DNA of 64,000 nucleotides from a virus. Both the position numbers and the translations under genes were made by a program. Below the pieces are notes generated by a model. It was given only the letters and a program-made list of their open reading frames with translations, did not search any database and had not been told where the DNA came from. The DNA is taken from positions 1 through 64,000 of IMG/VR virus record IMGVR_UViG_3300034093_001036; one strand, written 5' to 3'. Shown in pieces: positions 1,754-64,000 of this stretch (positions are counted from its first letter, which is position 1; every line of letters starts with the position of its first letter).

Positions 1754-1790
1754 TACCTTCCCCCTAGGACAGACAATGTCTGTTAGGGTT

Positions 1791-1799
1791 ATTATACCA
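1791..1799 (-). promoter_or_regulatory. Extended -10 promoter TGGTATAAT
   Basis: Exact TGnTATAAT about 40 nt upstream of the secreted-protein gene. Confidence 0.6.
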
Positions 1800-1804
1800 T
1801 TTTA

Positions 1805-1851
1805 TTACTGCATTTTAAAGTTATAGGTCTTTCCCAGTCACTTATATCATT
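1805..1851 (-). pseudogene. Remnant 3' end of a carbamoyltransferase allele
   Basis: Reads NDISDWE(K)TYNFKMQ* with one 1-nt gap, versus NDIEKWQKTYNNLVIR* at 2691-2741. Confidence 0.55.
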
Positions 1852-2689
1852 CTGTTTGTTTAAAAAGTGTACTATATATTGAATTTGCCATATGCATTTG
1901 TTGGTGAAATGCCCAATGACCAGGATGCCAATACTCATAGTCTGCTGCGTACTCAAAAAATTTATTATCTGAAAACTCTAAGTGACAATTATTTTCTGGC
2001 GAACTAGTCTCAAAATATGTATCTGTAAAATCTTTAAATGAGTATTGCTCTAAAGACGAATCGTTCCAGTAGGTCCACAATAATATTATATTATTTGATT
2101 TGCAATACTGAATAAACATTTTTAAAAATAACATATTATAAAAAATTGCAAATTCTTCTGGCAAAATATTTTCTACTATATGTGGTTCTTTAGAAAATTT
2201 TTCAAGTAATTTGTTAGATAGCATGGCTTTGCCTATATTTTCTCTAGACTTTACACGTTCATGATTACCTTCATTTTTTACTCTAAGGTTTATCAAAGGA
2301 ACTTCCAGCCTTGTTATTGGAAATACTGCAAATATATATTTTGGATGATAAAATTCTTTAAAAAACTGAAATGCTTTAACTATTTGTGCTTGTATTCCTT
2401 CTCCTCCTTTTGCTAAATTAATATAATCCTTATTCATTTTTTGTGATATTAGATAAGGCCATGTAAGTTCTATAGGCATTCCATGTCCCTCTGTTTGAGA
2501 ACATCCCAAAGTTAAAATTTCTTGATTGCTAAACTCATTGCACCTATATCCTTGAGAGTTTAGTTTATATTCAATAAAAACAGAGTCTGCTTCTGTTTTA
2601 GGCATAGCATGCTGACTCATTTCTTCTAAAGACCTATTTACAAAAATATCTGGAATTGTTTTTAAGTTTGATTTTTTATTAATCATCAA
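1847..2689 (-). CDS. SGNH/GDSL-like hydrolase or acyltransferase
   Basis: Block I-like LGCSQTEG, block II-like NLAKGG, C-terminal PGHW. Paralog of 4109..5104. Confidence 0.55.
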   Translation of the reverse strand: MMINKKSNLKTIPDIFVNRSLEEMSQHAMPKTEADSVFIEYKLNSQGYRCNEFSNQEILTLGCSQTEGHGMPIELTWPYLISQKMNKDYINLAKGGEGIQAQIVKAFQFFKEFYHPKYIFAVFPITRLEVPLINLRVKNEGNHERVKSRENIGKAMLSNKLLEKFSKEPHIVENILPEEFAIFYNMLFLKMFIQYCKSNNIILLWTYWNDSSLEQYSFKDFTDTYFETSSPENNCHLEFSDNKFFEYAADYEYWHPGHWAFHQQMHMANSIYSTLFKQTE

Positions 2690-2690
2690 A

Positions 2691-4112
2691 CTATCTTATC
2701 ACTAAATTGTTATAAGTTTTTTGCCATTTTTCTATATCATTTTCATCATTTAGTAGTGGCTGTCCTTTAATATTAAGGCTTGTATTTAATAGTATTGGAA
2801 CACCAGTTTCAATATAAAACTTATTAAGAACTCTCCATAACCCACGATGTTGATCTTTATTTACAGTTTGAACTCTTGAGGTTCCATCAGCATGAACTAC
2901 AGATGGTATTTTATCTGGCTGAAGACACTTAACTGTATATTGCATATAAGGGCTTGCAAAATCCATATCAAACCACTTAGACGCACACTCTTCCATAACT
3001 ACTGGAGCAAATGGTCTAAACAACTCTCTTTGTTTAATTAAATTAACTTTATCTTTTATATTTGGATCTCTTGGGTCAGCAAGAATGCTTCGATTGCCCA
3101 ATGCTCTTGGACCGTATTCTGCTCTGCCTGTTGCTACTGCTACGATTCCATCTTTTAATATACCGTCCACAATTTGCTGAACAGGATACTCTCCTCCAAG
3201 ATCATAGCCAAGATACGGAGTCTTCCAGTCAAGGTGCTTTCCGTACAAGGCTGCTGCTGCACCTAAAGAACTACCAGCATCTCCTGGGTTAGGCATGATC
3301 CAAATCATATCAAAAATATTCCATAGCAATGTATTTGCTGAAGAGTTAAGGGCACAACCACCCATAAATACTAAGTTCTTTTTACCAGTAAGGGACTTTG
3401 CCATACGCATAAACTGATTTAATCTTTGCTCATACACTACTTGTACTGCTGCAGCAATATCAAACCTATCTTGCTCTGTAATTATCATTCCCCAGTCATT
3501 AATTCCTTTATGAAAATTATATTTTTGTTTATCGTATGAAGGAAAATATTCATCAACCTCTTTGTAGTAACGCTTCCAGTCACCATAGGCAGCCATTCCC
3601 ATCATAATGTATTCTTCTTGGTTTGGCATAAGTCCAATAAGTTGTGTAAAAGCAGAATAAAATAGTCCAAAACTAACTGGATAGTTTTGCTTATACTTAA
3701 GTTTAATCTTGTCGCCCTCACCAACCCAAATAGTTGAAGTGTTATATTCTCCTATTGCATCTAATACAACAATTACAGCATCGTTAAATGCGCTTGTGTA
3801 GTATCCTGCTGCTGCATGAGAGTAGTGATGCTTAAAGTAGTGTACTGGAACATCTAAAGGAATGTTTGGCTTCCAGTCTGCTGCGCCACCCTTTAACATT
3901 ATTCTAGATCTTTTAAGCCAAGGCTTCTCATAGTAAGCAATGTAGTCTGGTGTTCCATAGTTTAATGCATCTAAGATAATATCTTTGTTGTTATACCAAT
4001 CATTCTTTTGTTTACTATATCTTTCTGCATGTCCCGCAAAAAGTATTTCTCCATCTTTAATTAAAGATACAGATGCGTCGTGGGAAGTTTCGTTAATTCC
4101 TAAAATTATCAT
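2691..4112 (-). CDS. Carbamoyltransferase, NodU/CmcH/TobZ family
   Basis: SHDASVSL, HHYSHAAA, DAIGE, MGMAAYG, GGCALN, PGDAGSSLG, EYGPRALGNRSIL, RPFAP, HADGTSRVQTV and LNTSLN motifs. Confidence 0.95.
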   Translation of the reverse strand: MIILGINETSHDASVSLIKDGEILFAGHAERYSKQKNDWYNNKDIILDALNYGTPDYIAYYEKPWLKRSRIMLKGGAADWKPNIPLDVPVHYFKHHYSHAAAGYYTSAFNDAVIVVLDAIGEYNTSTIWVGEGDKIKLKYKQNYPVSFGLFYSAFTQLIGLMPNQEEYIMMGMAAYGDWKRYYKEVDEYFPSYDKQKYNFHKGINDWGMIITEQDRFDIAAAVQVVYEQRLNQFMRMAKSLTGKKNLVFMGGCALNSSANTLLWNIFDMIWIMPNPGDAGSSLGAAAALYGKHLDWKTPYLGYDLGGEYPVQQIVDGILKDGIVAVATGRAEYGPRALGNRSILADPRDPNIKDKVNLIKQRELFRPFAPVVMEECASKWFDMDFASPYMQYTVKCLQPDKIPSVVHADGTSRVQTVNKDQHRGLWRVLNKFYIETGVPILLNTSLNIKGQPLLNDENDIEKWQKTYNNLVIR

Positions 4113-50746: not shown

Positions 50747-52780
50747 CTACTTGTTTATTTTAATTTCGCAATAATCTGTTGTGCAATACATCTCTCCCTG
50801 AGCCTCAAGATTTTCTGCTCCATCATAAATTGCAGCAAAATCAATGTGCTTTAACTTGCCAATATATGACTCGTATTGCTCTTCAGTAATACCTGTGTAG
50901 GGTTGCTGTGGATAAACTGTATTTCCCATTGGAAGGAATGAGACAGCCTTTAATTGTCCTTCGTACATATTGAGTGCTGGAACAATATGCTTTGACTCTG
51001 TTTCCTTGTCAAATGAAAGTGTTACAGAAACGCCATTGTCAGACCAATACTTTTGAGCAGTTGCAGCAAGTGCAATCTTTTCAAATAGTGTTACATCTTT
51101 TTCAGATCTTGGATGACCTGATTTAATTGGGAAGTAAACTACTGATGTGTTTGCTGATACAACATCGTCTTCAACTGTATACCCTGCTGCTTTAAACAAA
51201 TGCATCATTGGATCTGTGTTTCCAAAACGAACGGCACGAAGGAAGAACTCTCCTCCAGGACCCCAGTGAACTCCAGGAGTTGCACCAGAAAGAATTGAAA
51301 CTGATCCTGATGGCTTAACTGTTGTTACACGAATTGATTCACGAACACATAACCATTCAGAGTACTGATGATCATAATGACGAATCTTGTTGTATCCTTC
51401 ATCCATCCACTCACGAACCGTTGGCAAACCCTTTTGATCTGCAAATGATGCAATACCAGTAAGTGATGTGCCAATACGACGGTTGCGTTGCATGATACCG
51501 TTTGTTTGTGGCCAATGTGTTGGAACAAGTGTTACAGTCTTTCCATAAAGGTATGCAAACTTCAGGGTACGCAGGAAGTCTTCCTTAGATTCATGACGAT
51601 TCAAGTGCACTTCTACAAGTGTACATAATTCGTATGACTCTAATGGCTGCTCCGCACAGGGATTAAAGCCCATCACACGATAGTCTTTTCCATCTGGCGC
51701 ATCCTTTAGTCTGCCATAGTTACGAGCAACATCAAGCCAGATAAAACCTGGCTCTCCATTTTCTGTAACTAAATCTACATAGTCTTCGTACTTTGTTCCT
51801 ACTTCTGCTGAAATAGAATTATTAGACATCCAAGCCCAACCTGGATTCTCTGGATCAAATGAGTTACGCTCTGGGAATAACTCTGAGTTCTTTAGATTCA
51901 TAAATGTTTCATCCCCTGCATTACCCAAAGCAAGGGTTGCTGATCTACGAACATTGCCTGATACCACACAGGTACCAATAAGATTTACAAGGTCTACGAT
52001 AGCACGAGAGTCTAGTGTTTCACCTGCTCTGGAGCCTATTACACGGTCTATATGGTCATGCAACTTGATAAGGGGTGCAGGACCTGATGCAACGCCTCCA
52101 AAGCCCTTAATAGGGGCTCCAAGAGGTCTTATCAAATCATAGTTAAATTTTTGAATGCTTTGGTTTGCTCTTAGATATGAGTTGATAAGAAGTCTAACTG
52201 ACTCTACCCATCCCTCACGAGTGTCTGGGATTTCGAACACCTGTTCTGGTTCTGTTGGGGCATAGATTGCAAAATGCTTATCCTGTCCCACTGTATCAAA
52301 CCCTACACCAATACCAAGCATAAGGGCATCCATAACCCAAGCAAACAGGGCTCCTGGATCATTCTTGTCAAGGTCCTTTGTAGAAACCATTGCACAATTC
52401 TGTAGTGCTGCCGAGTTCTTTTTTTCCATTACCATTGGAGTTCCAAAAGCCCACATACCTCGTCCTGGTGGTGTCCACTTTAATTCAAACATTCTTTGGA
52501 ATGCTTCTTGTGCAGACTTCTGAGCCTTATAATCATTCCATGGTAGACGGTTTTCTTTAGCATGATTCTTTTGAACTGAATACATACCCTCGATTACTCG
52601 ACGACAAACTTCGTGCCAACGCTCTTTAGTTCCATCCTCCTTCATACGAGAATAAGTACGGATAAATGTAATCTCTCCTAAAGAGTTTTCTGCTGCATCC
52701 TTAAAACCAAAAGGGCTTGGAGCAGAAACATATTTACCTATAAAATCTTCTGGAAGTCTAAAACTAAAAAAATCTGACAT
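50747..52780 (-). CDS. nrdJ: Class II (B12-dependent) ribonucleotide reductase
   Basis: RTYSR, PPGRGMW, ALQNC, GNVRRSA, NPCAEQ, TTVKPSGS, C-terminal CTTDYC. No beta subunit nearby. Confidence 0.95.
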   Translation of the reverse strand: MSDFFSFRLPEDFIGKYVSAPSPFGFKDAAENSLGEITFIRTYSRMKEDGTKERWHEVCRRVIEGMYSVQKNHAKENRLPWNDYKAQKSAQEAFQRMFELKWTPPGRGMWAFGTPMVMEKKNSAALQNCAMVSTKDLDKNDPGALFAWVMDALMLGIGVGFDTVGQDKHFAIYAPTEPEQVFEIPDTREGWVESVRLLINSYLRANQSIQKFNYDLIRPLGAPIKGFGGVASGPAPLIKLHDHIDRVIGSRAGETLDSRAIVDLVNLIGTCVVSGNVRRSATLALGNAGDETFMNLKNSELFPERNSFDPENPGWAWMSNNSISAEVGTKYEDYVDLVTENGEPGFIWLDVARNYGRLKDAPDGKDYRVMGFNPCAEQPLESYELCTLVEVHLNRHESKEDFLRTLKFAYLYGKTVTLVPTHWPQTNGIMQRNRRIGTSLTGIASFADQKGLPTVREWMDEGYNKIRHYDHQYSEWLCVRESIRVTTVKPSGSVSILSGATPGVHWGPGGEFFLRAVRFGNTDPMMHLFKAAGYTVEDDVVSANTSVVYFPIKSGHPRSEKDVTLFEKIALAATAQKYWSDNGVSVTLSFDKETESKHIVPALNMYEGQLKAVSFLPMGNTVYPQQPYTGITEEQYESYIGKLKHIDFAAIYDGAENLEAQGEMYCTTDYCEIKINK

Positions 52781-52883
52781 GTGTATCGTCCTTTCAAAAA
52801 CGGAATAGTCCTAAGTATAGCAGAGTTTTATGAAAAGCAAAACTCTCTATCTTATGTATAAGTTGATATTTAAAAATCTATGG

Positions 52884-53654
52884 TTAAGACGTTAACTTTT
52901 TCCACTCTTCTTTTTGAATGGCTTGCTCAATTCTTACTTGTTTTTCTTCTTCTTTCCACTTATCAATAGTTTCTTGACTATATTCAATTTCAAAATAATC
53001 CCAAAAAGAAACCATAGTATATCTTGTGCCTTCTAATATTTTACTAACACCATGCACATTTTCTATTCCTCCAGGAAATACATAGTAAGAGTATGCATTT
53101 GGTTTAAAGGATAAATAGATGTCCCACTTTTCTCCTTCTGAATTTATTTCAAAGTCTTCTTTTTCTTTACAAAAGAAAAGATCTCCACCTTCATAGTCGT
53201 TATTAAGATATAGAATACCCACATACTTATTTATTTCAAAAGCGTTTGGGACCCCGTCATTATCTGAGTTGTCAGAATGAGGAGAAGCAAAACCGCCAAC
53301 ATCCCACTTCTGTGCATGAGATGTATTGGCTCTAACTTTTCTTTCAAAAACCAGTTCAACTGCTTCTTTAAACTTTTCTCTAAGGTCATCAAAAAATGTT
53401 AGCGTTAGACCATGTTCTTCAAGTCCTGGATCGTTTGCCATTAATCCCATACCTAGAGATCCATAAAACGCTATGTCTCCCCAGTTTTCTCCTTTTGACT
53501 CTACATAATTAATTAGACATTGGCTTGTTTTTTCATCTATAAAATTAGGAATTTCAACAATTCTGTTGTGAGTTATACCTAAAACACCCTTATTATTTAA
53601 TTCATCTTTTAAATATTTAAAGTTATCTTTATTAAGTTGATTAATGATAGTCAT
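52884..53654 (-). CDS. 2OG-Fe(II) oxygenase, prolyl-4-hydroxylase-like
   Basis: HSD...YLNNDYEGG...HGV...RY. Confidence 0.9.
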   Translation of the reverse strand: MTIINQLNKDNFKYLKDELNNKGVLGITHNRIVEIPNFIDEKTSQCLINYVESKGENWGDIAFYGSLGMGLMANDPGLEEHGLTLTFFDDLREKFKEAVELVFERKVRANTSHAQKWDVGGFASPHSDNSDNDGVPNAFEINKYVGILYLNNDYEGGDLFFCKEKEDFEINSEGEKWDIYLSFKPNAYSYYVFPGGIENVHGVSKILEGTRYTMVSFWDYFEIEYSQETIDKWKEEEKQVRIEQAIQKEEWKKLTS

Positions 53655-54453
53655 TTTTTATGTAAACCCCGCTGCTTCTTTCAATGTTCATTCTGTCTTT
53701 TTCCATTTGCATCCATGTATCTGGTCCATATTTTTTTTGATTCTCAATCCAAGCATCTGATGCTTGTTCATCTACATACCAAAAAGATCTAACAAAATAC
53801 TTTTCTCCTTCAGTAGTTTCTCTTACTCCATGCCAGTACGGTGGCCTTGACGGAAAGATAATTACATCTCCTTCTTCTGGCTTATAAGTAATTCTTGTAA
53901 AAGAATCTTTATTGGAAAATACTTTAAATTCAATTTCTCCGCCATTATAGTTACTATTTAAATACATATTGCAAGTCAGGGCTTGTTTTTCTCCTGGACC
54001 CTCTGCATCTTCTTGTGGATAGTCTGTATGAAAAGACATAGAATATCTTGAATTGTTGTTTTCAATATGTGGAGAGTCACTTTCAGCCTTTGTAGAATCT
54101 TTTGAATTATAGTATTTGCATATGTCAGCCTTTAAAAATACTAAGTCCTCTAAGGATAGACCCGTTGTATCAACATAATGCTTTGTTGTTTTATAAAAAA
54201 CATCAAGTATATCCTTGTGTTGATCTGATACAAGAAAAGATTCTATGTATAAAGACCATTCTTGATCTGAAGGAAAAGATTTAGATCGATAAAAATTGTT
54301 ATTGAAAATTTTATAAATATCCCCAAAGTCATACCACTTTTCCCAAGTTGCGGAATCTAGAGAATCCAGAAGGCCACGCAAATCTTTAAATGGGTTCTTA
54401 TATACAAAAATGTTTTGGTCTATTTTATTAAAATTAATATTTTTAATTGTCAC
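53641..54453 (-). CDS. 2OG-Fe(II) oxygenase, P4H-like
   Basis: HTD...YLNSNYNGG...HGV...KY. Confidence 0.9.
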   Translation of the reverse strand: MTIKNINFNKIDQNIFVYKNPFKDLRGLLDSLDSATWEKWYDFGDIYKIFNNNFYRSKSFPSDQEWSLYIESFLVSDQHKDILDVFYKTTKHYVDTTGLSLEDLVFLKADICKYYNSKDSTKAESDSPHIENNNSRYSMSFHTDYPQEDAEGPGEKQALTCNMYLNSNYNGGEIEFKVFSNKDSFTRITYKPEEGDVIIFPSRPPYWHGVRETTEGEKYFVRSFWYVDEQASDAWIENQKKYGPDTWMQMEKDRMNIERSSGVYIKNDYH

Positions 54454-55286
54454 ATTGCTACCTTAGATTCATCTATACCCTTTTTAATATTTGGCTTTTT
54501 GAAATCGTGATACCTGTCACCTCTATCAATTCTTTCTTTTTCCATCTTTGCCCATTCTTCAACACCAAATTTTTCTTGATTATCGTGCCACTCTTTTGTT
54601 CCAGCAAATGGAATTTGATAAAAGCATCTAATAAGATATTTGTCAATATTTCTAATTCTTTTAACACCGTGAAGGTATCTTCCCTCTTGAGATAATAAAT
54701 CTGGATGGCCTGAAGGAAAAACCAAAACATCTCCAGCCTCTGGTTTATAATCTATAACCGTTTTATTCCCAGTTAAAAATGTTATACCTCCATCGCCATA
54801 GTCATCATTCAAATACATTGTGCATGTTAATGCAAATTGTGCTCCTGGGCAATCTGTTTCAAGGGCTTTATAGTCTGAGTGATGGATCATTTCTAAAGAA
54901 TCTTTATCGCTATTTGGATCATTGTCATGAGTATATTTTGAAATTGATGGGCCCATAATAATCCAGTCCTCTCCTATTTTAAGATTATGGGCAGACATAA
55001 AATTTTCGGTTGCATAACCAAATGCATGCTGTATTGTTTCTAATGCCTCAACCTCTTCTAAATATAGTGTGTTATTAATATTAGGATCATCTTCATTTAG
55101 AAAATTACCAATGACATATACATAGTGTCCAAACCTACTCCATGGTTGCCAATCGTCAAATAAAAAACTAGTTCCTTTGTTTAATTCAGACTGCTTAAAT
55201 AATTCTACAATCCTTTTATTGTTTGGAATTAACCCTTTGTAAACATAAATGTTTTCATCTAATTGTTTAACTGTAATATTATTCAT
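54450..55286 (-). CDS. 2OG-Fe(II) oxygenase, P4H-like
   Basis: HSD...YLNDDYGDGG...HGV...KY. Confidence 0.9.
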   Translation of the reverse strand: MNNITVKQLDENIYVYKGLIPNNKRIVELFKQSELNKGTSFLFDDWQPWSRFGHYVYVIGNFLNEDDPNINNTLYLEEVEALETIQHAFGYATENFMSAHNLKIGEDWIIMGPSISKYTHDNDPNSDKDSLEMIHHSDYKALETDCPGAQFALTCTMYLNDDYGDGGITFLTGNKTVIDYKPEAGDVLVFPSGHPDLLSQEGRYLHGVKRIRNIDKYLIRCFYQIPFAGTKEWHDNQEKFGVEEWAKMEKERIDRGDRYHDFKKPNIKKGIDESKVAM

Positions 55287-55325
55287 TTTTTGTCCCCCAT
55301 TGGATTATCTTTAAACATATAATTA

Positions 55326-55880
55326 TTATACCACCTTGTCTCCAAATAAAATTGCAAAACCAAATCTAGGGGTTATGGGTTCAACATAGTGGTAAGTTCC
55401 ACCAGGTATATACAATAGATCTCCTTCTTCTAATATAACATCCATAAAAGGTTGATCATTTTCAACAGAATCATAAAGTCTCCAACGTGTTTTACCTTTA
55501 CATTGCCAATGTATATTGTTTTCCCTGTCTTCATGTTTGCCAATAACTTGTCCGCTATCTTCAAGTTTAAGTGAACCAAATAACTGACATGTTACAACCT
55601 TTAAATCTTTAAAACAAGGATAAAATCTAGAATGAACTTCTTTTACAAATAAATTTACTGAACTTATAATCTGTGCCTCATCATAAAATAATGCGTATGG
55701 ATTAGGCAAAATCTTTTTACCAGTTTTTTTGTGCTCATAATCATTTACAAACTGAAGCACTTCATCCCAGGTAACTTCAGGCATTGATATTTTTGGAAAA
55801 AGAGTTGCTACTTTATTATTATAAGCATTTAAAAAATTATCTTGATCTAAAAAATTAAAATCAAAACTTTTATTTTTCAT
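55326..55880 (-). CDS. JmjC/cupin-4 2OG oxygenase
   Basis: HED...QCKGKTRWRLY...GDLLYIPGGTYHYV. Confidence 0.85.
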   Translation of the reverse strand: MKNKSFDFNFLDQDNFLNAYNNKVATLFPKISMPEVTWDEVLQFVNDYEHKKTGKKILPNPYALFYDEAQIISSVNLFVKEVHSRFYPCFKDLKVVTCQLFGSLKLEDSGQVIGKHEDRENNIHWQCKGKTRWRLYDSVENDQPFMDVILEEGDLLYIPGGTYHYVEPITPRFGFAILFGDKVV

Positions 55881-56551
55881 TTTGATTTTCCATGTGAACG
55901 AATTGTAAAGAAAAAAGGAATAACATATCTAATTCCTTTTTTAATTTCTCTTACTCCGTGAATATAATTTAAATCTCCAGGGAAGAAATATGCAGAACCC
56001 GCTTTTGGCTTAAACTCAATTCCTTGATTTGGGAAATATAACTCTCCACCTTCATAGTCATCATTAAGATAAAAAAGACCTGCAATATCATACCAAGGAA
56101 AATCATTTGGCTTTCCTACATTGTCTCCTTCGTGCAACTCTTTATCTGCATGTGGGTTTTGTAGTTGTCCTGGAAGCCATCTAACAATTGCTGTTGCTGT
56201 GGGCCAGGCGTCAATATTAAAAAAATCATTTACTTCTTCTGTAAGCCTGTCTTGAAGGCTTTTAATTACTGGGTTTATATTTTTATTATTTTGATCTAAT
56301 CTATCTCCAGTGCAGACTCTGTCATCCCAATATTTAGAATCATAAATAACAGTTCCTTCTTCGTTATAGTGAGTTTCAGTAATATCCCAAATTGTAATAT
56401 TTTTTGCTGATTCTGATAAAAAAGATAGTTCTTCGTCGGTCATAAAATTGTTTCGTGCTTGGATCATATCTGCACTTTTACCAAAAAATCCAGAGGGAGT
56501 TATTGAAAATCTATCTTTATCTTGGTGATTAGAGTACTCTATTTTTTTCAT
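55877..56551 (-). CDS. 2OG-Fe(II) oxygenase, P4H-like
   Basis: HAD...YLNDDYEGG...HGV...RY. Confidence 0.9.
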   Translation of the reverse strand: MKKIEYSNHQDKDRFSITPSGFFGKSADMIQARNNFMTDEELSFLSESAKNITIWDITETHYNEEGTVIYDSKYWDDRVCTGDRLDQNNKNINPVIKSLQDRLTEEVNDFFNIDAWPTATAIVRWLPGQLQNPHADKELHEGDNVGKPNDFPWYDIAGLFYLNDDYEGGELYFPNQGIEFKPKAGSAYFFPGDLNYIHGVREIKKGIRYVIPFFFTIRSHGKSK

Positions 56552-56571
56552 ACAGTTAGTATATCATCTTT

Positions 56572-57306
56572 CTATTCATATTTGCGCTGCTCCCAGATTT
56601 CATTTTTATATATTCCGCCATTTGGTTTTCTATAAATTTGATAATTTTCTATTGATTGCTTCATTAGTTCAACTGCATTATCTTGTTCTATTATTTCAGA
56701 AGTCCAGGATTCTCTTTTAAATGGCAGAAGTTGAGCATACGCTGTTCCTTCTGGAATAATTCCCTCAAAACCCTCACAAATAAAAAATGGAAAAGATCCA
56801 GGCATATGAACTTTGTCGTTATCCACAATTCCACTAGTTAGCAAAAATGGTAACTCAAATCTGTTAAATGGCTGAGTATACAATACGCTATATCCTGGAG
56901 GAGTTTTTATTTGCCAATCTGGAGTTATTGCAAAATGATTTTTGTAATACCCGCGGGGGTGTTCAAACTGTGGCATTTCTGATCTTTCTTCAATTAAGTT
57001 TTTATATTTTACATTTAAAACTTTATGTTTTAGTCCAGAATCAGTCATGTAGAATTCAATATCGCAAGGAAGATTAAGAGAATATCCAGAACCCATAATA
57101 TCAAAAATTGCAGGACAGGCCTTCCATGTAGGAACTTTTCCACCATCCTCTCCTATATAAAAAGAATTGTCTGTTGGTAATTTTGCAAACCTATCTGCTT
57201 TTCTAAACCATTCAGGAATTGTTCTTATAATTGGAGTTGGTGCTGACTTGCTTTCTTTTGAAAGCCAAATTTTATTTGCAATAAAAGATATTTTTTCTGT
57301 ATTCAT
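56572..57306 (-). CDS. DUF6065-like (dUTPase-like fold) protein
   Basis: TWKACP, TPPGYS, SGIVDND, IPEGTAYAQLLPFKRE. Confidence 0.55.
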   Translation of the reverse strand: MNTEKISFIANKIWLSKESKSAPTPIIRTIPEWFRKADRFAKLPTDNSFYIGEDGGKVPTWKACPAIFDIMGSGYSLNLPCDIEFYMTDSGLKHKVLNVKYKNLIEERSEMPQFEHPRGYYKNHFAITPDWQIKTPPGYSVLYTQPFNRFELPFLLTSGIVDNDKVHMPGSFPFFICEGFEGIIPEGTAYAQLLPFKRESWTSEIIEQDNAVELMKQSIENYQIYRKPNGGIYKNEIWEQRKYE

Positions 57307-58016
57307 TACTTGTCACTTTGATATTTATTAATTGAAAGTTTTAAGGATTTTACTTCGTGCTCTCCAAGGCTATTTCCTAAATGGTCAACAGCATCTCTAT
57401 AAAAGTTTGTCCATTGTCCAGACTGAGTTATTTCTCCAGAGGCTTTTCCATATTCAGAAAGATTCTTTTCAAAATCTTGATCTTTTACATAGTCGTACAG
57501 ATTTACTTCTGTTGCTTGGAGTTTTTTTAAACTAATTGGCATAATACAAACAATTGGTGTTCCTGCTGGTATTGTTATTACTTCATTTGCCCTTGTTATT
57601 TTCCATGCATATGGAAGTGGAGCAAGATGGACAACTGGACTAATTACACTTGAGAATCCTTGAACACCATCAATAAATTGATTTGGAACTGGAAGGAGCA
57701 GTAGACTAATCTCATCAGTACTTTTAAAATATAAACCACTATTAAAACTTATAGTTCCGTTAGCCCTGTTTGCATGAACATACTTTTCTCCAGAAAGAAT
57801 TTCAAGGTCTTCAGATCTAGAGTTTGGATCTGTTCCTTTCCAAATAAAAGAAATGTCTTCTGGAAAAGAAAATGTCCATCCTGTTGTGTTTGCCAACGAT
57901 ACTGGGAAGCAATGATAGGCGTGTTTGTCAAAAGTTTCATCCATCCAGTTTCTTCTAACTTTTAAAGTATCAAAAGTTACATCAGAATGTGGTGTTTGAT
58001 AAACATCTATAGACAT
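57306..58016 (-). CDS. DUF6065 family protein
   Basis: RNWMDET...HAYHCFPVSLANTTGW, IPAGTPIVCIMP. Confidence 0.7.
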   Translation of the reverse strand: MSIDVYQTPHSDVTFDTLKVRRNWMDETFDKHAYHCFPVSLANTTGWTFSFPEDISFIWKGTDPNSRSEDLEILSGEKYVHANRANGTISFNSGLYFKSTDEISLLLLPVPNQFIDGVQGFSSVISPVVHLAPLPYAWKITRANEVITIPAGTPIVCIMPISLKKLQATEVNLYDYVKDQDFEKNLSEYGKASGEITQSGQWTNFYRDAVDHLGNSLGEHEVKSLKLSINKYQSDK

Positions 58017-58017
58017 G

Positions 58018-58704
58018 TTAGTTTCCTGTTTCTAAAAACATCTCTGGTCCATGGAATTTTGCGCTGTAGTCTAGCATTGTTACAATTGAATATTTAGTTC
58101 CGCTAGTAACTGGCATTGCTCTATGAGAATACATATATGTTGATGGGAAAATATACAAATCTCCAGCACGTGGTTTTACTAATAAATCTTGGTGTTGAAA
58201 ATGTAAACCACCGTCGACGTAGTCGTCATTTGGGTATGCAACCAAAGACACTGTACAGTTATAAGAAAATCCATGATCATGATGATATTGGAAATGCTGA
58301 CCCTCATGGTATCTAATAAAATTCATTGCTTCCCAAAACCTTAGTTCTGCAATATTAAACATTTTACGATAGTGCTCAACTGCTGGACTTTTTCTATCGT
58401 AGCAGTCTTGCCAAAGTTGTTGAAGCGCTAAAGATGCTTCTCCTGGTCTTTGTGCCATATCTTTCTTTGTAAACTTAAAGTCAACACAATCTCTATATTC
58501 TGGCATGCTTTCTTGATAGCCAACAAACGCTTCCATCCAGTGAAATGGGTTGCTTTGGTCTTCAAGAACAGACTCTAATCTGTTAATAATATCCAGTTCT
58601 TTAGGTAAAACATCTCTATAGACAAAAATTCCACTCCCTAGATCTTCAAAAGACGACCAGGTTTGCTCTATAGGGGTTGTCTCAGTTTGAACATGTTTTT
58701 GCAT
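58018..58704 (-). CDS. 2OG-Fe(II) oxygenase, P4H-like
   Basis: HHD...YPNDDYVDGG...HRA...KY. Confidence 0.9.
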   Translation of the reverse strand: MQKHVQTETTPIEQTWSSFEDLGSGIFVYRDVLPKELDIINRLESVLEDQSNPFHWMEAFVGYQESMPEYRDCVDFKFTKKDMAQRPGEASLALQQLWQDCYDRKSPAVEHYRKMFNIAELRFWEAMNFIRYHEGQHFQYHHDHGFSYNCTVSLVAYPNDDYVDGGLHFQHQDLLVKPRAGDLYIFPSTYMYSHRAMPVTSGTKYSIVTMLDYSAKFHGPEMFLETGN

Positions 58705-58739
58705 TTTTTCCTGCTTTCTACTATGTATATATTATAGCA

Positions 58740-59444
58740 CTAGTTATTCTTATGATGTAAATCGTTATAGTCTGTCATAATTACAACAGAATACTTTATA
58801 CCCTGCAATAATTCACAAGAGGCATGCTCATAAACAAAATTTGATGGGAAAAGAACAATGTCTCCAGCCTGGGGCTTAATCTTTAATTCTTGTCTTGGAA
58901 ACTCTAATTCTCCACCAACATAGTCATCATTAAGATATAGTATTGCAGATATTGTACATGCATAGAATGGGCCATGGTCACCATGAAGTTTAAAATATTT
59001 CCCAGGTAGATACTTAACAAAATTAAAGGCTTCTTTGTATTTCATCTGAAGATGCCATAAAGACTCATAATCATTTAGGCAGACATCTAATGCGTCTTCT
59101 ACCTCTTTGTGTATGTCAAACATGTCTTGATTAAAAGATATCCCAGACTTTCCAAGCATATCTCTTTTATATTTTATATCAATGCAGTTCCTAACATAAT
59201 CTAAATTTTCTACATCATTAACCATTGCTGTAGACCAAGAAAGGTTACAGTCTGGATCGTTTGCTGAGTTTTCTAGTCTTTTAATTATACTATCACACTG
59301 GCTTCTATTTATGGCATTTTTATATACATTAATACCGTAGCCAATATTTAAAACCTCTATGTTATTTGACATTGATCTAGACTTTAGCCTACTGTCTGCT
59401 TTTTCTAATCTTGGTAAATCAAGCCACCCAAAGTTATTTGTCAT
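58740..59444 (-). CDS. 2OG-Fe(II) oxygenase, P4H-like
   Basis: HGD...YLNDDYVGG...HAS...KY. Confidence 0.9.
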   Translation of the reverse strand: MTNNFGWLDLPRLEKADSRLKSRSMSNNIEVLNIGYGINVYKNAINRSQCDSIIKRLENSANDPDCNLSWSTAMVNDVENLDYVRNCIDIKYKRDMLGKSGISFNQDMFDIHKEVEDALDVCLNDYESLWHLQMKYKEAFNFVKYLPGKYFKLHGDHGPFYACTISAILYLNDDYVGGELEFPRQELKIKPQAGDIVLFPSNFVYEHASCELLQGIKYSVVIMTDYNDLHHKNN

Positions 59445-59488
59445 TCTAATATTATAGCATATCTACATATTTATACAAAATATTAATT

Positions 59489-60166
59489 TTAAATTTGATA
59501 TATGTAAATTTCTGCAAAATCATAAATTGGATCTTTTTTAAGCAATTCTTTAAAAATATAATCATTTTCAAAATGAAAAACAAAAAAGGATTTAGATTTT
59601 GATAAAATTTCCCATTTATCTAATATTAATTTATTAAAAATTTCAGGCAGCAATGGGTAATAAAAATAATAAACACACTTTTCTTCTGAAAAATGATAAT
59701 CATTTATATCACTATTTATAAAATCAACTTCTTTATCTATTTCTATATTAATTGTTTTTAAATTATTTAAAGCAATATTGTTGAATTGATCGTCTATCTC
59801 TACACCTACATACTTCTTATACGGTGCATTTGAGATTAACTGATGTAAAATTGTTTTTCCCTTACCGCTACCTATATCTAAAAAGGTATACTCCTCAATT
59901 CCTTCAATATCTTTCATAAAATTATTCACCATGTCTAAAATTTTTAAAGGTGAGTTCTGTAAACCCATTGATCCTGGAAACCTATCATTATTATCAATAC
60001 TGCCTGGCACATATTCACCAGAACCATCTGAGGCTAAAGGAGTTGGATGCCAAGTGTCTACATTATATTTTTCATCAAAAAATTTGAATAATGAAGCGTC
60101 TTCTCTTCTAATTTTTTTTAATACATCTAAATTCTTTATTGTACTTTTGTCTACACCTTTATGCAT
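59489..60166 (-). CDS. Class I SAM-dependent methyltransferase
   Basis: FLDIGSGKG, GVEID, YFYYP. Confidence 0.85.
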   Translation of the reverse strand: MHKGVDKSTIKNLDVLKKIRREDASLFKFFDEKYNVDTWHPTPLASDGSGEYVPGSIDNNDRFPGSMGLQNSPLKILDMVNNFMKDIEGIEEYTFLDIGSGKGKTILHQLISNAPYKKYVGVEIDDQFNNIALNNLKTINIEIDKEVDFINSDINDYHFSEEKCVYYFYYPLLPEIFNKLILDKWEILSKSKSFFVFHFENDYIFKELLKKDPIYDFAEIYIYQI

Positions 60167-60746
60167 TTTTTGCTCCTAAATATTTGTTTGGCATGATATC
60201 AATTATAGCATGGATTCTGTCATGGTCACTATCGTTTATTACTGAGTGTGGAATAATATTATTAATCTCATACCAATTTCCAACCTCAAGATACTTTTTT
60301 TCTTCAAATACTTCAAATATGACTTTTGGATTTGTTATTAGTGGAATATGTATTCTTCTACCGAGTTGTAGCATTACCCCGCCATCAACGTGAGATTTTA
60401 TTCCAGAGCGCTTATTCATTTGAATTATCTCACTCCTAATAACTTTGCCATCGTACAAGTTTTCTAAATATTCATAAATAGCATTAAGGCTTTCATTAGA
60501 TTGTTTATTTTTAAAATAATTTATATCATAAGATGTATTGCCTTGTCCAATTTCCCAATGATAAGACATAAACCTTAGTTGAAACATTTTTGTATCTTTG
60601 TGCGTTGCCAACTTGTCTTGACGAGAAGTATCCAGTAGCCACTCATTTTCAAAAGAGTTAACTTCTTGAATTATTGAAGATAGATCAACTGGTAAAGATC
60701 CATATTGATAGTTCCAAGAAGTATTCTTATCTGGTAGTTTTAACAT
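60159..60746 (-). CDS. Aspartyl/asparaginyl beta-hydroxylase-family oxygenase
   Basis: SHVD, RIHIPLITN, HSVIN, RIHAIID. Confidence 0.85.
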   Translation of the reverse strand: MLKLPDKNTSWNYQYGSLPVDLSSIIQEVNSFENEWLLDTSRQDKLATHKDTKMFQLRFMSYHWEIGQGNTSYDINYFKNKQSNESLNAIYEYLENLYDGKVIRSEIIQMNKRSGIKSHVDGGVMLQLGRRIHIPLITNPKVIFEVFEEKKYLEVGNWYEINNIIPHSVINDSDHDRIHAIIDIMPNKYLGAKNA

Positions 60747-61413
60747 AATCGTAAATTTCCATATCTAAATTGTTTAATTCTTCAATTTTATTTTTCATTG
60801 AATCTGATATTTTAATAGTTTGAAAATTTTCATTAATAGCATTTTTATTTGAAAAACTATAAAACCCATATGCCTGATAACATAGATCATTTAACCTTGA
60901 TATAAAAGATGAATGATTGTCTAATGTATCTATTAGAGCCATTGAGTCTATAAGGTCTTTTACTTCTTTTATATCTACGCTACCTTCTTCAAGGCACCAA
61001 CTTTCATTGGCTCTTTGAATTCCGTGGTCTAAAGAATTATAAAAATCTTCGTTTAAACTTTTATTTAAACTTCTAGCCTGAAGGTTATGGTGTTTTGAAT
61101 TTTCCACCCATTTTTCAAGTTGAGCCTCTAAGTGAGCACCTTTAAAAGATGGATGTAAATAAATAAAGTTGCTTATAAATCTATCTAATGGATTTCTAAC
61201 CAAGCCTATATTTATTAAGTCGTCTCTATACTTTAATGCAGTCAGACCAAAGTGCCCTGAAATAAACCGTTTATCAACAAAGGTTTTTGGAAAAACCTCT
61301 CCGTGGTTTGTAGCAAAGTATGGAATCTTCCTAATCTTTAGATCATTAACAATATGAGTCTTTATATATATACCCGAACATCTTGGGATATGTATATGAT
61401 TTATTGAACTCAT
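60727..61413 (-). CDS. Sulfotransferase-family protein
   Basis: HIHIPRCSG, ISGHF, VRNPLDRFISNF, LNNLDMEIY. Confidence 0.8.
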   Translation of the reverse strand: MSSINHIHIPRCSGIYIKTHIVNDLKIRKIPYFATNHGEVFPKTFVDKRFISGHFGLTALKYRDDLINIGLVRNPLDRFISNFIYLHPSFKGAHLEAQLEKWVENSKHHNLQARSLNKSLNEDFYNSLDHGIQRANESWCLEEGSVDIKEVKDLIDSMALIDTLDNHSSFISRLNDLCYQAYGFYSFSNKNAINENFQTIKISDSMKNKIEELNNLDMEIYDYVKTTR

Positions 61414-61414
61414 A

Positions 61415-62779
61415 CTACTGAGAATCTCTGATAGTTAAGCCTTGGAAGGCACCCTTCTTATTATGAGAGATTAGATCTCCTGCAATAAAGAGTGAATAAG
61501 GATTTACAGTGATGTCATAAACATCTGTTGTTTCATCAATATATTCAACAACTTCAACAAGGGTATCAACTGCTTGATTATTGATATCGGATACTAGGTA
61601 GTCTCCAACTTTAACGACGCCAGCCTGTACGAATGCATAGACTCCATCTCTCTTAACAAGCATCAAGTGCTCCATAGAGAATCGTTTTTCGTTGGTGCTA
61701 TTGAATGCTACTGTAGTTGCAACATCTCTAGCCTTGATTGCTCCGATAACTGTTTCAACAACTGATGATCCAGTTAGAGTATCAGATACCCATGTCTCAG
61801 CAAAATCAACAGATGAGTTATCTGGTAATTCATTGAAACTGTAGGATACTAGACTTTGTCCAATAGCCAGGTCTCTTGCTTTAACATATCCACTAGTTGT
61901 TCTTACAAGAACATCACCTTGTACGCAGAATACTGGTGGGAAGAACGGACAGAATACTGGTGGGAAGAACGGACAGAATACTGGTGGGAAGAACGGACAA
62001 AAACGTGGTGGGAAGAACGGACAGAATACTGGTGGGAAGAACGGTGGGAAGAATGGGAAGAACGGACAAAAACGTGGTGGGAAGAACGGTGGGAAGAACG
62101 GTGGGAAGAATGGGAAGAACGGTGGGAAGAATGGTGGGAAGAATGGGAAGAACGGTGGGAAAAATGGAGGGAAGAAAGGAGGTGTTGTTGTAACGTTGTT
62201 AGAACTATTACCGTATAGTCCATCTCCATTAGCATTTATAGCAAGAACCTGATAACTCTGTGATGTATCTCCAGTTTCTGCTACAGTTGTTGACAAAACA
62301 TTTCCTACAACATAAACTGGACCATCAGAAGACTTTACACGATATCCAGTAATTGCAGATCCGCCAGTTGCAGGTGCTGTCCAAGATACTGTATCTAAGT
62401 TAACGGCTGTAGTTGCTGTTGGAGCATTTGGAGCAGCAGGAACTGTTGTTGCCAATACTCCTGCTGATGCAGAAGATGCTGCTGATGTTCCCGCAGCATT
62501 AGTTCCTGTTACTGTAAATGTGTAAGAAGTATTTGATGCAAGACCATCAACGGTAATTGGAGAGGCAGAAGAACTTCCTGTAAACCCTCCTGGAGAAGAT
62601 GTTACTGTAAATGATGTTGCTGCTGGAGAATCTCCTGGTAATGAAAAACTAACACTTATGGCACCATTGTTAAACGCACGTGAAGTTCCTACGTTTGTGC
62701 CTACAACAGATATGGGTGGTTTTGGCTCTAATGAGTCATTCTGTTGTAAAGATTTAGATCCTAGTTCTTTTTTTGCCAT
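61415..62779 (-). CDS. Two FN3 domains, an 85-aa Pro/Phe repeat and a C-terminal Hint domain
   Basis: FN3: GLASNTSYTFTVTGTNAAG and WTAPATGGSAITGY...AINANG. Hint: CVQGDVLV, SMEH, VYDITV, FIAGDLISHN. Confidence 0.88.
   Translation of the reverse strand: MAKKELGSKSLQQNDSLEPKPPISVVGTNVGTSRAFNNGAISVSFSLPGDSPAATSFTVTSSPGGFTGSSSASPITVDGLASNTSYTFTVTGTNAAGTSAASSASAGVLATTVPAAPNAPTATTAVNLDTVSWTAPATGGSAITGYRVKSSDGPVYVVGNVLSTTVAETGDTSQSYQVLAINANGDGLYGNSSNNVTTTPPFFPPFFPPFFPFFPPFFPPFFPFFPPFFPPFFPPRFCPFFPFFPPFFPPVFCPFFPPRFCPFFPPVFCPFFPPVFCPFFPPVFCVQGDVLVRTTSGYVKARDLAIGQSLVSYSFNELPDNSSVDFAETWVSDTLTGSSVVETVIGAIKARDVATTVAFNSTNEKRFSMEHLMLVKRDGVYAFVQAGVVKVGDYLVSDINNQAVDTLVEVVEYIDETTDVYDITVNPYSLFIAGDLISHNKKGAFQGLTIRDSQ
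61460..61927 (-). other. Hint (intein-like/BIL) autoprocessing domain, 156 aa
   Basis: Cys1 block A, S-x-x-H block B, VYD block F, terminal His-Asn followed by Lys. No endonuclease domain. Confidence 0.85.
61928..62182 (-). repeat. Coding tandem repeat of 9-, 12- and 24-nt units encoding PFF, PPFF and CPFFPP(V/R)F
   Basis: Plus strand shows gggaagaacggt and ggtgggaagaacggacagaatact units. Confidence 0.97.
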
Positions 62780-62809
62780 TTTTTATTTCTCCAATTTTCT
62801 TTGTATTTT

Positions 62810-64000
62810 TTATGCTGTGAGATCTCCAACAACAACCCAAGAGTCTGTTGCTCTCTTCATTAATGTTGCTGATGACCACTGTGTACGAAGTTTTAATCCT
62901 GGAGTTGCATTAACTGTTACTCCTACTGCTCCAGCAATTGTTACTTGTCCCGCACCAGTTTGAAGGATATCAATTGATGATCCTATTGGAAAGGCTGTTG
63001 TTGCATTTGTTGGAATTGTAACTGTTACTCCAGTAGCAGAAGAAACTTCAATTAATGAATCTCTTTCATTAAGTGCTGCAAGTGTGTAGCCTGCTGTTTT
63101 TTGTATAATTGTTGTACGTGATGGAACGCCTTCTTTTGTTTGTGTTCCATCTGTGAATTGTACTCCGCCTGCTGGAACAGTTATTCCTACGCCAGTAAAT
63201 ATTGGGGAAGCAAGTGGTGCATATGTATTTGCTGCTGTTGATGAAGCAAGTTTTAGGTCTAAAGCAGTTTGTGTAGCAGTTGAAACTGGCTTGTTAGCGT
63301 CGGAAGTATTTTCTACGTTTCCAAGACCAACCATTGTTGCTGAAATACCTGAAACTGTTCCACTAAATGCTGGGGAACTAAGTGGTGCATACCCTGAAAT
63401 GCTTGCGCCTGTAGGAATTGTTACTTCTCCAGTAAATGTTGGTGAGGCTAGTGGTGCATACCCTGAAATGCTTGCGCCTGCAGGAATTGTTACTGATCCA
63501 GTAAATGTTGGTGCATGCAATGGTGCCTTATAACCAAGTACTGTGTGTGTAGCAGTTGAAACTGGCTTATCTGCATCTGCTGTATTATCAACAGATCCTA
63601 GGCCTACCATTGACTTTGTTACACCAGACACAGTTCCTGTGAATGTTGGTGAAGCAATTGGTGCCTTAGCAGCAAGGTCAGATGTTAAACCTGAAATCTT
63701 AGACTGTGCAATTGCGGCTGATGCGTTAACGTCTGCGTCTACAATTGTTCCATCAAGTATCAGCGATGAAGTTATTGCCCCAGTTGAAATAGAAACTTCG
63801 TTACCTGATACAGTTACTCCAGTTCCTGCTGTAATTGTTCCTGAACCTGAGAACTGGAATACATCAATGTTATCCGTTCCAACAACAAATGTTGCAGGGT
63901 CTGCAACTACCTGAATCCATCCTGTTCCAGCGTTTGTTCCATCTTGTACGAATATGTATGCGCCTGGAATCTCTGATGCTTCATCACAATATGTACAACG
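62810..64000 (-). CDS. Tail fibre protein, 5' partial
   Basis: Frame is open from 64000. APLASPTFTG repeats, two GLGxVxNTxDAxKPVSTAT units, C-terminal AFPIGSSIDILQTGAGQV...WVVVGDL domain. Confidence 0.85.
   Translation of the reverse strand, partial: RCTYCDEASEIPGAYIFVQDGTNAGTGWIQVVADPATFVVGTDNIDVFQFSGSGTITAGTGVTVSGNEVSISTGAITSSLILDGTIVDADVNASAAIAQSKISGLTSDLAAKAPIASPTFTGTVSGVTKSMVGLGSVDNTADADKPVSTATHTVLGYKAPLHAPTFTGSVTIPAGASISGYAPLASPTFTGEVTIPTGASISGYAPLSSPAFSGTVSGISATMVGLGNVENTSDANKPVSTATQTALDLKLASSTAANTYAPLASPIFTGVGITVPAGGVQFTDGTQTKEGVPSRTTIIQKTAGYTLAALNERDSLIEVSSATGVTVTIPTNATTAFPIGSSIDILQTGAGQVTIAGAVGVTVNATPGLKLRTQWSSATLMKRATDSWVVVGDLTA

Follow-up and report, generated by a model that had tools for sequence, protein, structure and literature searches.

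Aquatic phages, above all cyanomyoviruses, carry many genes for 2-oxoglutarate (2OG)/Fe(II) oxygenases, and the question which substrates these enzymes act on dates from the papers on phage Syn9 and on the comparison of cyanophages. The same question is raised by IMG/VR record IMGVR_UViG_3300034093_001036, a linear phage sequence of 88,579 bases with an estimated completeness of 81%, of which bases 1-64000 were analysed as one stretch (the window). On its minus strand, a cluster of 13 genes (62779-52884) consists of a protein with a Pro/Phe repeat tract, in the following termed the carrier, and an array of 12 further genes behind it, six of which encode oxygenases resembling prolyl 4-hydroxylases (P4H). 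In this large, uncultured lake-phage lineage, a tract gene directly before enzymes homologous to those of cyanophages provides a concrete candidate substrate. The tentatively preferred answer, based on sequence comparison, is that the cluster could well be a module for the modification of a virion appendage, located at the end of the tail-fibre genes, with the tract as its main candidate substrate.

The Pro/Phe tract and its association with the array

The carrier gene (61415..62779) encodes a surface-type protein of 454 amino acids (aa) and, judged from Pfam and homologues, features a conserved N-terminus, an FN3 domain, a putative second FN3 domain, the Pro/Phe tract, a Hint domain and a tail of 14 aa. 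A preliminary description of the locus had given this architecture as FN3-FN3-tract-Hint, of which one FN3 domain (Pfam, residues 37-104, 39 bits), the tract and the Hint domain were recovered, whereas Pfam makes no call for the second FN3 domain. The tract, delimited by its composition and tandem repeats, covers residues 200-284 (61928..62182). Its 85 residues comprise 36 Pro, 38 Phe, 5 Cys, 4 Val and 2 Arg, with Pro and Phe amounting to 74/85 residues (87%). It opens with PPFF/PFF units, which give way to CPFFPP[V/R]F octamers, with Cys spaced every 8 residues across carrier positions 253-285 and the last octamer joining Cys285 of the Hint domain directly. At the DNA level, Tandem Repeats Finder reported repeat units of 12 nt (20.9 copies) and 24 nt (8.8 copies) for positions 61926-62176.

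The Hint domain (61460..61927, Cys285 to His439-Asn440) stays below the Pfam cut-off (Intein_splicing, 24.8 vs 35.8 bits) and was recognized by its key residues and by a profile of 16 homologues, whose best solved match is the bacterial intein-like domain 2LWY (E 1.7e-9), followed by inteins. Like 2LWY, its closest solved relative, it combines an N-terminal Cys and a C-terminal His-Asn with the lack of a splicing nucleophile at the +1 position; the present domain differs in capping a Pro/Phe tract at the extreme end of a phage fibre-region protein. As residue 441 (+1) is Lys and not Cys, Ser or Thr, the domain is expected to cleave rather than to splice, and it has the residues for N-terminal thioester formation and Asn cyclisation from which such cleavage is predicted. 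Many Hint-bearing homologues stop one residue past His-Asn.

Behind the carrier, the genes follow each other with spacings between a 20-nt overlap and a 44-nt gap, in line with the mostly abutting or overlapping arrangement previously described, and all 13 genes were confirmed with their order, strand and coordinates. The first three encode a sulfotransferase (60727..61413), an Asp/Asn beta-hydroxylase-family (AspH-like) 2OG oxygenase (60159..60746) and a probable S-adenosylmethionine (SAM) methyltransferase (59489..60166). They are followed by the P4H-like 2OG-Fe(II) oxygenases 'a' (58740..59444) and 'b' (58018..58704), the DUF6065 protein 'a' (57306..58016), its distant relative 'b' (56572..57306), the P4H-like oxygenase 'c' (55877..56551), a JmjC oxygenase of the JmjC_2/Cupin_8 type (55326..55880) and the P4H-like oxygenases 'd' (54450..55286), 'e' (53641..54453) and 'f' (52884..53654). 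No terminator-like site was found on the minus strand within 52500-63000, and promoter-like sites occurred at chance level (47 observed vs 44.7 expected).

The association of tract and array, which the preliminary description had proposed as a check, was found from three different starting points. A search of viral contigs with the carrier yielded at least 358 relatives, and among the best 80 of these, P4H-like homologues occurred in 77 and DUF6065 homologues in 71-73 loci. The order in the relatives is fixed, leading from fibre genes to the carrier, the array and then either ribonucleotide reductase together with a 1238-aa protein or the block toward the portal. Starting from a DUF6065 alignment instead (at least 534 relatives, 78 new loci examined), an open reading frame (ORF) with the tract was detected upstream of the array in 44/45 loci with at least 2.5 kb of upstream sequence, at a median distance of 71 bp; the single miss is a contig starting inside the Hint domain of the same phage. 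The third anchor was the repeat DNA itself (three PFFP units), with at least 119 stretches found and 79 examined, of which 69 had an ORF in frame and 42 featured at least 3 kb of downstream sequence. At least one P4H-like ORF followed within 8 kb in 34/42 of these loci, two or more in 29, and a DUF6065-like ORF in 33/42. The FN3-FN3 carrier was present in only 23 of the 42; the remaining repeat-anchored loci include several carriers whose N-terminal parts are unrelated, four large proteins resembling fibres, five ORFs truncated by the end of the contig and a single spurious frame. The array thus follows the tract across several carriers, and the link is therefore with the tract rather than with one carrier.

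In the relatives, the tract is always based on Pro-Pro/Phe-Phe and occurs in two forms, either PPFF/PFF or the hexamer PPxFFx. Among 94 non-redundant loci, the carrier ends in a Hint domain in 25, in a Cys-rich knot in 21 and in a short tail in 48 cases. On the enzyme tree, the type of tip changes at least 12 times and the Hint state at least nine times. The enzymes at the core of the array are kept in the same loci, with P4H-like 'b' in 94/94 and 'c', referred to here as the most conserved paralogue, in 92/94, DUF6065 'a' serving as the anchor. Across 57 complete arrays, the number of P4H-like genes shows a weak to modest rise with the number of prolines in the tract (rho 0.39, p 0.0025, relatedness ignored). 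As a separate observation, the Cys-rich knot (about 20-30 residues with 7-9 Cys, e.g., in L020, L038, L059, L060, and L083) looks like an alternative 'tip' module.

Relatives of the enzymes and a second module

All six P4H-like cluster genes match 2OG-FeII_Oxy_3 (PF13640) at 28.6-47 bits (cut-off 27), and a seventh paralogue of the genome is located outside the window. The HxD...H iron triad is invariant in 7/7 paralogues, as is a Lys/Arg before a conserved Tyr. With a profile of paralogue 'c', the top matches among solved chains were peptidyl-prolyl hydroxylases only, namely P3H1 (1.8e-6), the Bacillus anthracis P4H (1.7e-5) and vCPH of the virus PBCV-1 (5.6e-4). Likewise, the structural model of 'c', the paralogue chosen for modelling (predicted local distance difference test, pLDDT, 90), has its best fold match in vCPH (5c5t, E 1e-10), followed in this order by P3H1, an algal P4H solved with (Ser-Pro)5, the B. 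anthracis enzyme (BaP4H) and PHD2. By sequence and model, the P4H-like genes are shown to be of the peptidyl-prolyl-hydroxylase type with intact metal and 2OG sites, from which activity is predicted. Both vCPH and the present proteins are small virus-encoded P4Hs, with an identity of about 18-20%; PBCV-1 features one P4H, no DUF6065 partner and no adjacent substrate gene, whereas the present phage has 6-7 paralogues. vCPH is reported to hydroxylate Pro-containing repeat peptides in a sequence-specific manner (PMC7019647).

The sulfotransferase (Sulfotransfer_2, 24.6 bits, cut-off 22; weak match to phrog_3347, a galactose-3-O-sulfotransferase), the AspH-like enzyme (Asp_Arg_Hydrox PF05118, 41 bits) and the JmjC oxygenase (JmjC_2, 38 bits) were assigned above the Pfam cut-offs, in agreement with the preliminary description. 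The methyltransferase named there stays probable, as all its Pfam matches lie below cut-off (best DOT1, 20.7 vs 23 bits). Sulfotransferase, AspH-like enzyme and methyltransferase form a rare trio, which was found together in L008/L088 (fragment of the same phage), L012 and L014, and the sulfotransferase and AspH-like pair without the full trio in L126, L132 and L139. Trio and pair always stand behind a Hint-type carrier wherever the carrier gene is complete. In bacterial operons, an AspH-type beta-hydroxylase, a sulfotransferase and a methyltransferase are situated beside a low-complexity structural protein, and hydroxylation followed by sulfation of collagen-like or tail-collar proteins was predicted for them by Iyer et al. 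(2010; PMC2938197). These operons, to which the present trio is likened by description, feature Gly-rich or tail-collar substrates, whereas the trio is confined to phage sub-clades with the Hint-type tract protein. Besides, a gene resembling glutathione peroxidase (PF00255, 33.6 bits) occurs inside the oxygenase array of some relatives, e.g., L051 (15235-16005).

The two DUF6065 proteins are only distantly related to each other (blastp E 0.68; hhalign probability 88.9%, E 2.4e-6), although both match phrog_7084. The preliminary description had named two DUF6065-like proteins, which holds for 'a' (PF19541, 99.5 bits), whereas 'b' is a remote relative without a Pfam family, only 2/16 of its homologues matching DUF6065 at E up to 1. 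Each alignment contains a conserved Cys (C36 in 'a', C64 in 'b'). According to its model (pLDDT 72), DUF6065 'a' has a dUTPase/dCTP-deaminase-like fold. The top 22 of 48,161 chains were all dUTPases or dCTP deaminases (Z 9.8-5.2), after which Z falls to 4.7 and 3.5, with a fit of about 3 Å root-mean-square deviation over about 115 residues; Foldseek (E ~8e-4) and the Z-score search, which is independent of it, agree. For 'b', no match at E up to 10 was obtained by comparing its sequence profile with solved chains; its consensus contains GIIDND and YAQ stretches which we take to resemble dUTPase motifs III and IV.

The DUF6065 family comprises 1,374 cluster representatives at E up to 0.001. Of ten long members chosen, five are fused to 2OG-FeII_Oxy_3 and one to a Stf0 sulfotransferase (fusion proteins P0052, P0061, P0087, P0114, P0121, and P0099). 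In 5/5 oxygenase fusions, the DUF6065 half has its nearest relative in DUF6065 'a' and the oxygenase half in P4H-like 'c'. These natural fusions are therefore read as a sign of two proteins working together. Among cultured records, 50 contain relatives of 'b', most of them from haloarchaeal myoviruses. The former description of the DUF6065 genes as tailoring-type genes was not borne out, since they are not known tailoring enzymes, have a predicted dUTPase-like fold, stand alone in bacteria and adjoin a reductase in other viruses. DUF6065 thereby gains a predicted fold, a candidate partner and a genomic context.

A second module in the same genome (74424-70482 of the genome; L257 6482-10424) begins with a 573-aa protein that combines (APTPV)n with a short tract of the PFF/CPFFPPVF type and a Hint domain that is identical to the first one in 149/171 residues (87%). 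This Pro-rich gene is followed by the seventh P4H-like gene (PF13640, 51 bits), a 186-aa ORF containing an HxD-like stretch and a gene matching PF11397, 'Glycosyltransferase (GlcNAc)' (73.6 bits), presumably the Gnt1 family. In the relatives, the ORF directly before the P4H-like gene of this module was Pro-rich in every case seen, being built of (VTPA)n, (TP)n or (APTPT)n repeats together with short PFF stretches and ends rich in Cys, and the same island features a GT61 glycosyltransferase, a sugar epimerase/dehydratase and a weakly O-fucosyltransferase-like protein. A P4H-like gene and a protein-type glycosyltransferase beside a Pro-rich protein were found in the second module only, and Pfam detected no glycosyltransferase among the 12 array genes. 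In the Skp1 pathway of Dictyostelium and Toxoplasma (PhyA, then Gnt1), a cytoplasmic P4H generates hydroxyproline, which is glycosylated by a GlcNAc transferase (PMC3515798). The second module resembles this pathway in pairing a P4H-like with a PF11397 gene behind a Pro-rich protein. It differs from Skp1, with its single target proline and regulatory role, in that the present phage has repeats, and the module lies outside the cluster coordinates. By gene content and analogy, the second module provides the strongest individual argument for a hydroxylation, and there a glycosylation, of the phages' own Pro-rich proteins, an activity that is predicted.

Candidate substrates and competing explanations

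If the tract is the substrate, the oxygenases would hydroxylate its prolines, and possibly those of other Pro-rich fibre proteins, inside the infected cell, with the P4H-like paralogues covering different positions or residues and DUF6065 acting as their partner subunit. In the present sub-clade, the AspH-like hydroxylase, the sulfotransferase and the methyltransferase might introduce additional hydroxyls and subsequently cap them. Cleavage by the Hint domain would occur at Phe284|Cys285 via a thioester, so that the modified tract would form the C-terminus of a fibre appendage, either free or available for ligation. The product would be a stiffened, more soluble Pro/Phe rod serving adsorption. 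A bolder picture appears doubtful, namely that these lake phages carry an extracellular-matrix-like rod of polyproline type on the fibre tip, which would be multiply hydroxylated by the paralogues and their dUTPase-fold partners, further beta-hydroxylated, sulfated or methylated in some clades, and activated at its C-terminus by the Hint thioester for covalent attachment to a virion protein or the host surface. Should this bolder picture prove true, hydroxyproline-based structural chemistry would be known from a bacteriophage for the first time, and the 2OG oxygenase arrays of aquatic phages would gain their first assigned substrate. If the tract is indeed the substrate, phages would apply a collagen- or extensin-like hydroxylation to their own adsorption apparatus. 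Searches of the literature found nothing on Pro/Phe repeats of the present kind in phages among the matches listed, on hydroxyproline in bacteriophage virions or naming DUF6065, subscription journals and supplementary files lying outside these searches.

Several observations weigh against the tract as substrate. Eight of the 42 repeat-anchored loci feature no P4H-like gene downstream (L263, L269, L271, L291, L320, L334, L335, and L336). Most loci likely come from related lake phages, and the association is one of gene neighbourhood within largely one lineage, in which shared descent alone can keep genes together. The expected co-variation of repeat and enzymes is visible in the raw counts of the 94 loci, with P4H-like 'a' in 70/75 of the PPFF-type vs 1/19 of the PPxFFx-type loci, but the DUF6065 'a' tree contains only three supported (five in total) independent pairs (sign test p = 1). 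Due to this small number of pairs, the raw table was dropped as evidence. To our knowledge, Pro-Pro-Phe-Phe is unlike the substrate motifs of P4Hs. In addition, hydroxyproline was not detected in the virions of PBCV-1, the source of the only characterised viral P4H, as reported in PMC7019647. The bacterial DUF6065 genes add to these points, as they stand alone in 79/80 loci, and only two of the loci contain a P4H-like gene at a distance of up to 8 kb, a count made with a profile built from phage sequences that may miss bacterial P4H genes.

A further group of objections concerns the array itself, which by its gene content is of an already known kind. The Syn9 gp41-gp54 cluster was described by Iyer, Abhiman, de Souza and Aravind (2010; PMC2938197) as containing dioxygenases in tandem together with a JmjC protein and a cysteine protein of the dUTPase fold. 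Tandem classical dioxygenases, a JmjC protein of the MINA/No66 type and a dUTPase-fold Cys protein are all found in the present cluster, and in both phages the array stands directly behind tail-fibre genes, as the preliminary description had expected of oxygenase arrays in aquatic phages. The JmjC protein is a homologue of Syn9 gp49 (E 8e-9), the profile of DUF6065 'b' matches gp43 (E 3.5e-7), and P4H-like 'a' matches 181 cultured records, nearly all from cyanophages. Of the two, only Syn9 features two tryptophan halogenases, and only the present window the sulfotransferase, the AspH-like enzyme, the methyltransferase and the Hint-capped tract protein. No Pro/Phe tract is present in Syn9, where the genes in front of the array contain 22-35% Gly and 2-3% Pro, and the DNA pattern that encodes PFFPPFF is likewise missing from S-H9-1, S-RIM4 and HF2. 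In the lineage, 44/45 arrays have a tract gene before them, but homologous arrays lacking any such tract occur in cultured cyanophages.

These relatives speak for an action on a small molecule or a host component, e.g., a secondary metabolite, ribosomal proteins, EF-Tu or 2OG levels, with no virion substrate involved. For the homologous Syn9 cluster, synthesis of a secondary metabolite was proposed (Iyer et al., 2010; PMC2938197), and cyanophage 2OG oxygenases were tied to 2OG and nitrogen stress, with DNA repair also cited, by Sullivan et al. (2010; PMC3037559). The JmjC, DUF6065-like and P4H-like genes of the window all have homologues in Syn9 or other cyanophages, and one B. anthracis P4H entry among the structural matches is titled as modifying EF-Tu. 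Relatives of Sulfotransfer_2 and Stf0 usually act on sugars. Nevertheless, Pfam found no peptide synthetase, halogenase or transporter among the 12 genes (and no halogenase family among all 13), the array keeps its place directly behind a low-complexity Pro-rich gene in two separate modules, and the second of these contains glycosyltransferase families that act on proteins. Altogether, an action on small molecules or host components is considered somewhat unlikely.

The oxygenases might instead modify other virion proteins, i.e., collagen-like proteins, linkers of the PT or APTPV type or fibres, the tract gene being merely the last gene of the fibre region. The genome encodes Collagen-repeat (PF01391) and Pro/Thr-rich repeat proteins, the adjacent 905-aa fibre has many SPTFTG-type motifs, the fibre gene is no less constant as a neighbour than the tract gene, and in Syn9 the array follows Gly-rich fibre-region genes without a tract. 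Still, loci anchored by the tract alone, with carriers other than FN3-FN3 proteins, retain P4H-like and DUF6065-like genes directly behind it, a median of just 71-111 bp separates the tract gene from the array, and the collagen-like gene is 14 kb away, with a homologue within reach in 1/80 loci. As an explanation in place of the tract, other virion proteins are therefore unlikely candidates.

An action on nucleotides or DNA, i.e., hydroxylation of a base or sugar with DUF6065 as a dUTPase-like enzyme alongside the adjacent reductase, draws on the fold matches of DUF6065 'a' described above. DUF6065 relatives adjoin ribonucleotide reductase in the haloarchaeal virus HF2 and the cyanophage S-RIM4 (L166, L167), the array abuts a reductase here, and a carbamoyltransferase is encoded elsewhere in the window. 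The adjacency could be an old synteny or a nucleotide link; together with the dUTPase-like fold it allows a nucleotide-linked role, which counts against the tract as substrate. On the other hand, the oxygenases group with peptidyl-prolyl hydroxylases by sequence and fold and not with AlkB or TET/JBP, and even at E 10, a sequence search with the profile of DUF6065 'b' recovered no dUTPase among solved structures. Moreover, the herpesvirus dUTPase-related proteins among the matches show reuse of the fold without enzyme activity, the 80 bacterial DUF6065 loci (mostly Alphaproteobacteria and Gemmatimonadota) have unrelated housekeeping genes as neighbours, and a single base modification would hardly account for 5-9 paralogous oxygenases. 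A nucleotide substrate is accordingly regarded as quite improbable.

Finally, a ribosomally synthesised and post-translationally modified peptide (RiPP), with the tract as a core that is tailored and then freed by Hint as a bioactive peptide, is barely credible in spite of the repetitive core beside tailoring-type enzymes, the Cys1 and C-terminal His-Asn of Hint and the F|C junction that recurs in the upstream octamers, as the carrier is a 454-aa protein with FN3 domains inside the fibre block, Hint cleavage would free the whole FN3-tract protein and not a small peptide, peptide release is no conserved feature given Hint in only 25/94 homologues with its repeated changes on the tree, and Pfam scans of the 12 genes revealed no leader peptidase or recognition element, although divergent ones could be missed. 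The two options of the preliminary description, virion modification and RiPP, thus fared differently, as the association supports the modification of a virion protein and the RiPP half is unsupported. The probability remaining beyond these five readings is left open.

Neighbouring genes, source and further observations

Upstream, the carrier gene is preceded by the 3' part of a tail-fibre gene (62810..64000, minus strand; 905 aa in full, 62810-65527 of the genome), which is its constant neighbour in the relatives. Downstream, the array is bounded by a class II ribonucleotide reductase assigned by Pfam (50747..52780, minus strand). The portal protein is about 47% identical to portals of Streptomyces siphophages, and a scan of the 88.6-kb record gave no member of the WhiB family. 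When the 9.9-kb cluster was compared with 50,697 phage records by megablast, no match resulted, nor did tblastn match the 1238-aa neighbour or DUF6065 'a' in the cultured phage records. For the carrier, tblastn matched the Hint part only, in genes for a 'virion structural protein' of Erwinia, Dickeya and Yersinia jumbo phages.

The phage is real and recurrent in lake-water metagenomes. Twenty lake-water metagenome runs contain 0.99 of the sampled words of the cluster, all of them flagged as possible sources, and no RNA run is among the listed holders of these words. Metagenome contigs covering 61300-62900 match the flanks without differences, with breaks falling in the repeat and in Hint. In four lake metagenome runs, the summed contig depth of the repeat-coding DNA (62056-62163) was about 100-3500 compared to about 25-45 on the flanks, a rise that mixes within-gene copies, the paralogue and other phages and was not used for any inference.

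Far from the cluster, at 2691-4112, a Nol-like carbamoyltransferase (phrog_1601, 351 bits) is encoded, which may belong to a separate system for glycan or base modification. The collagen-repeat protein (PF01391, 30 bits) is located among the fibre-region genes (76283-77014 of the genome) and represents another possible substrate of prolyl hydroxylases. Between the two fibre blocks, a lone plus-strand gene encodes an SLT/lysozyme-like protein (PF18896, 57.7 bits; 69895-70485 of the genome), whose place and orientation are kept in most relatives.

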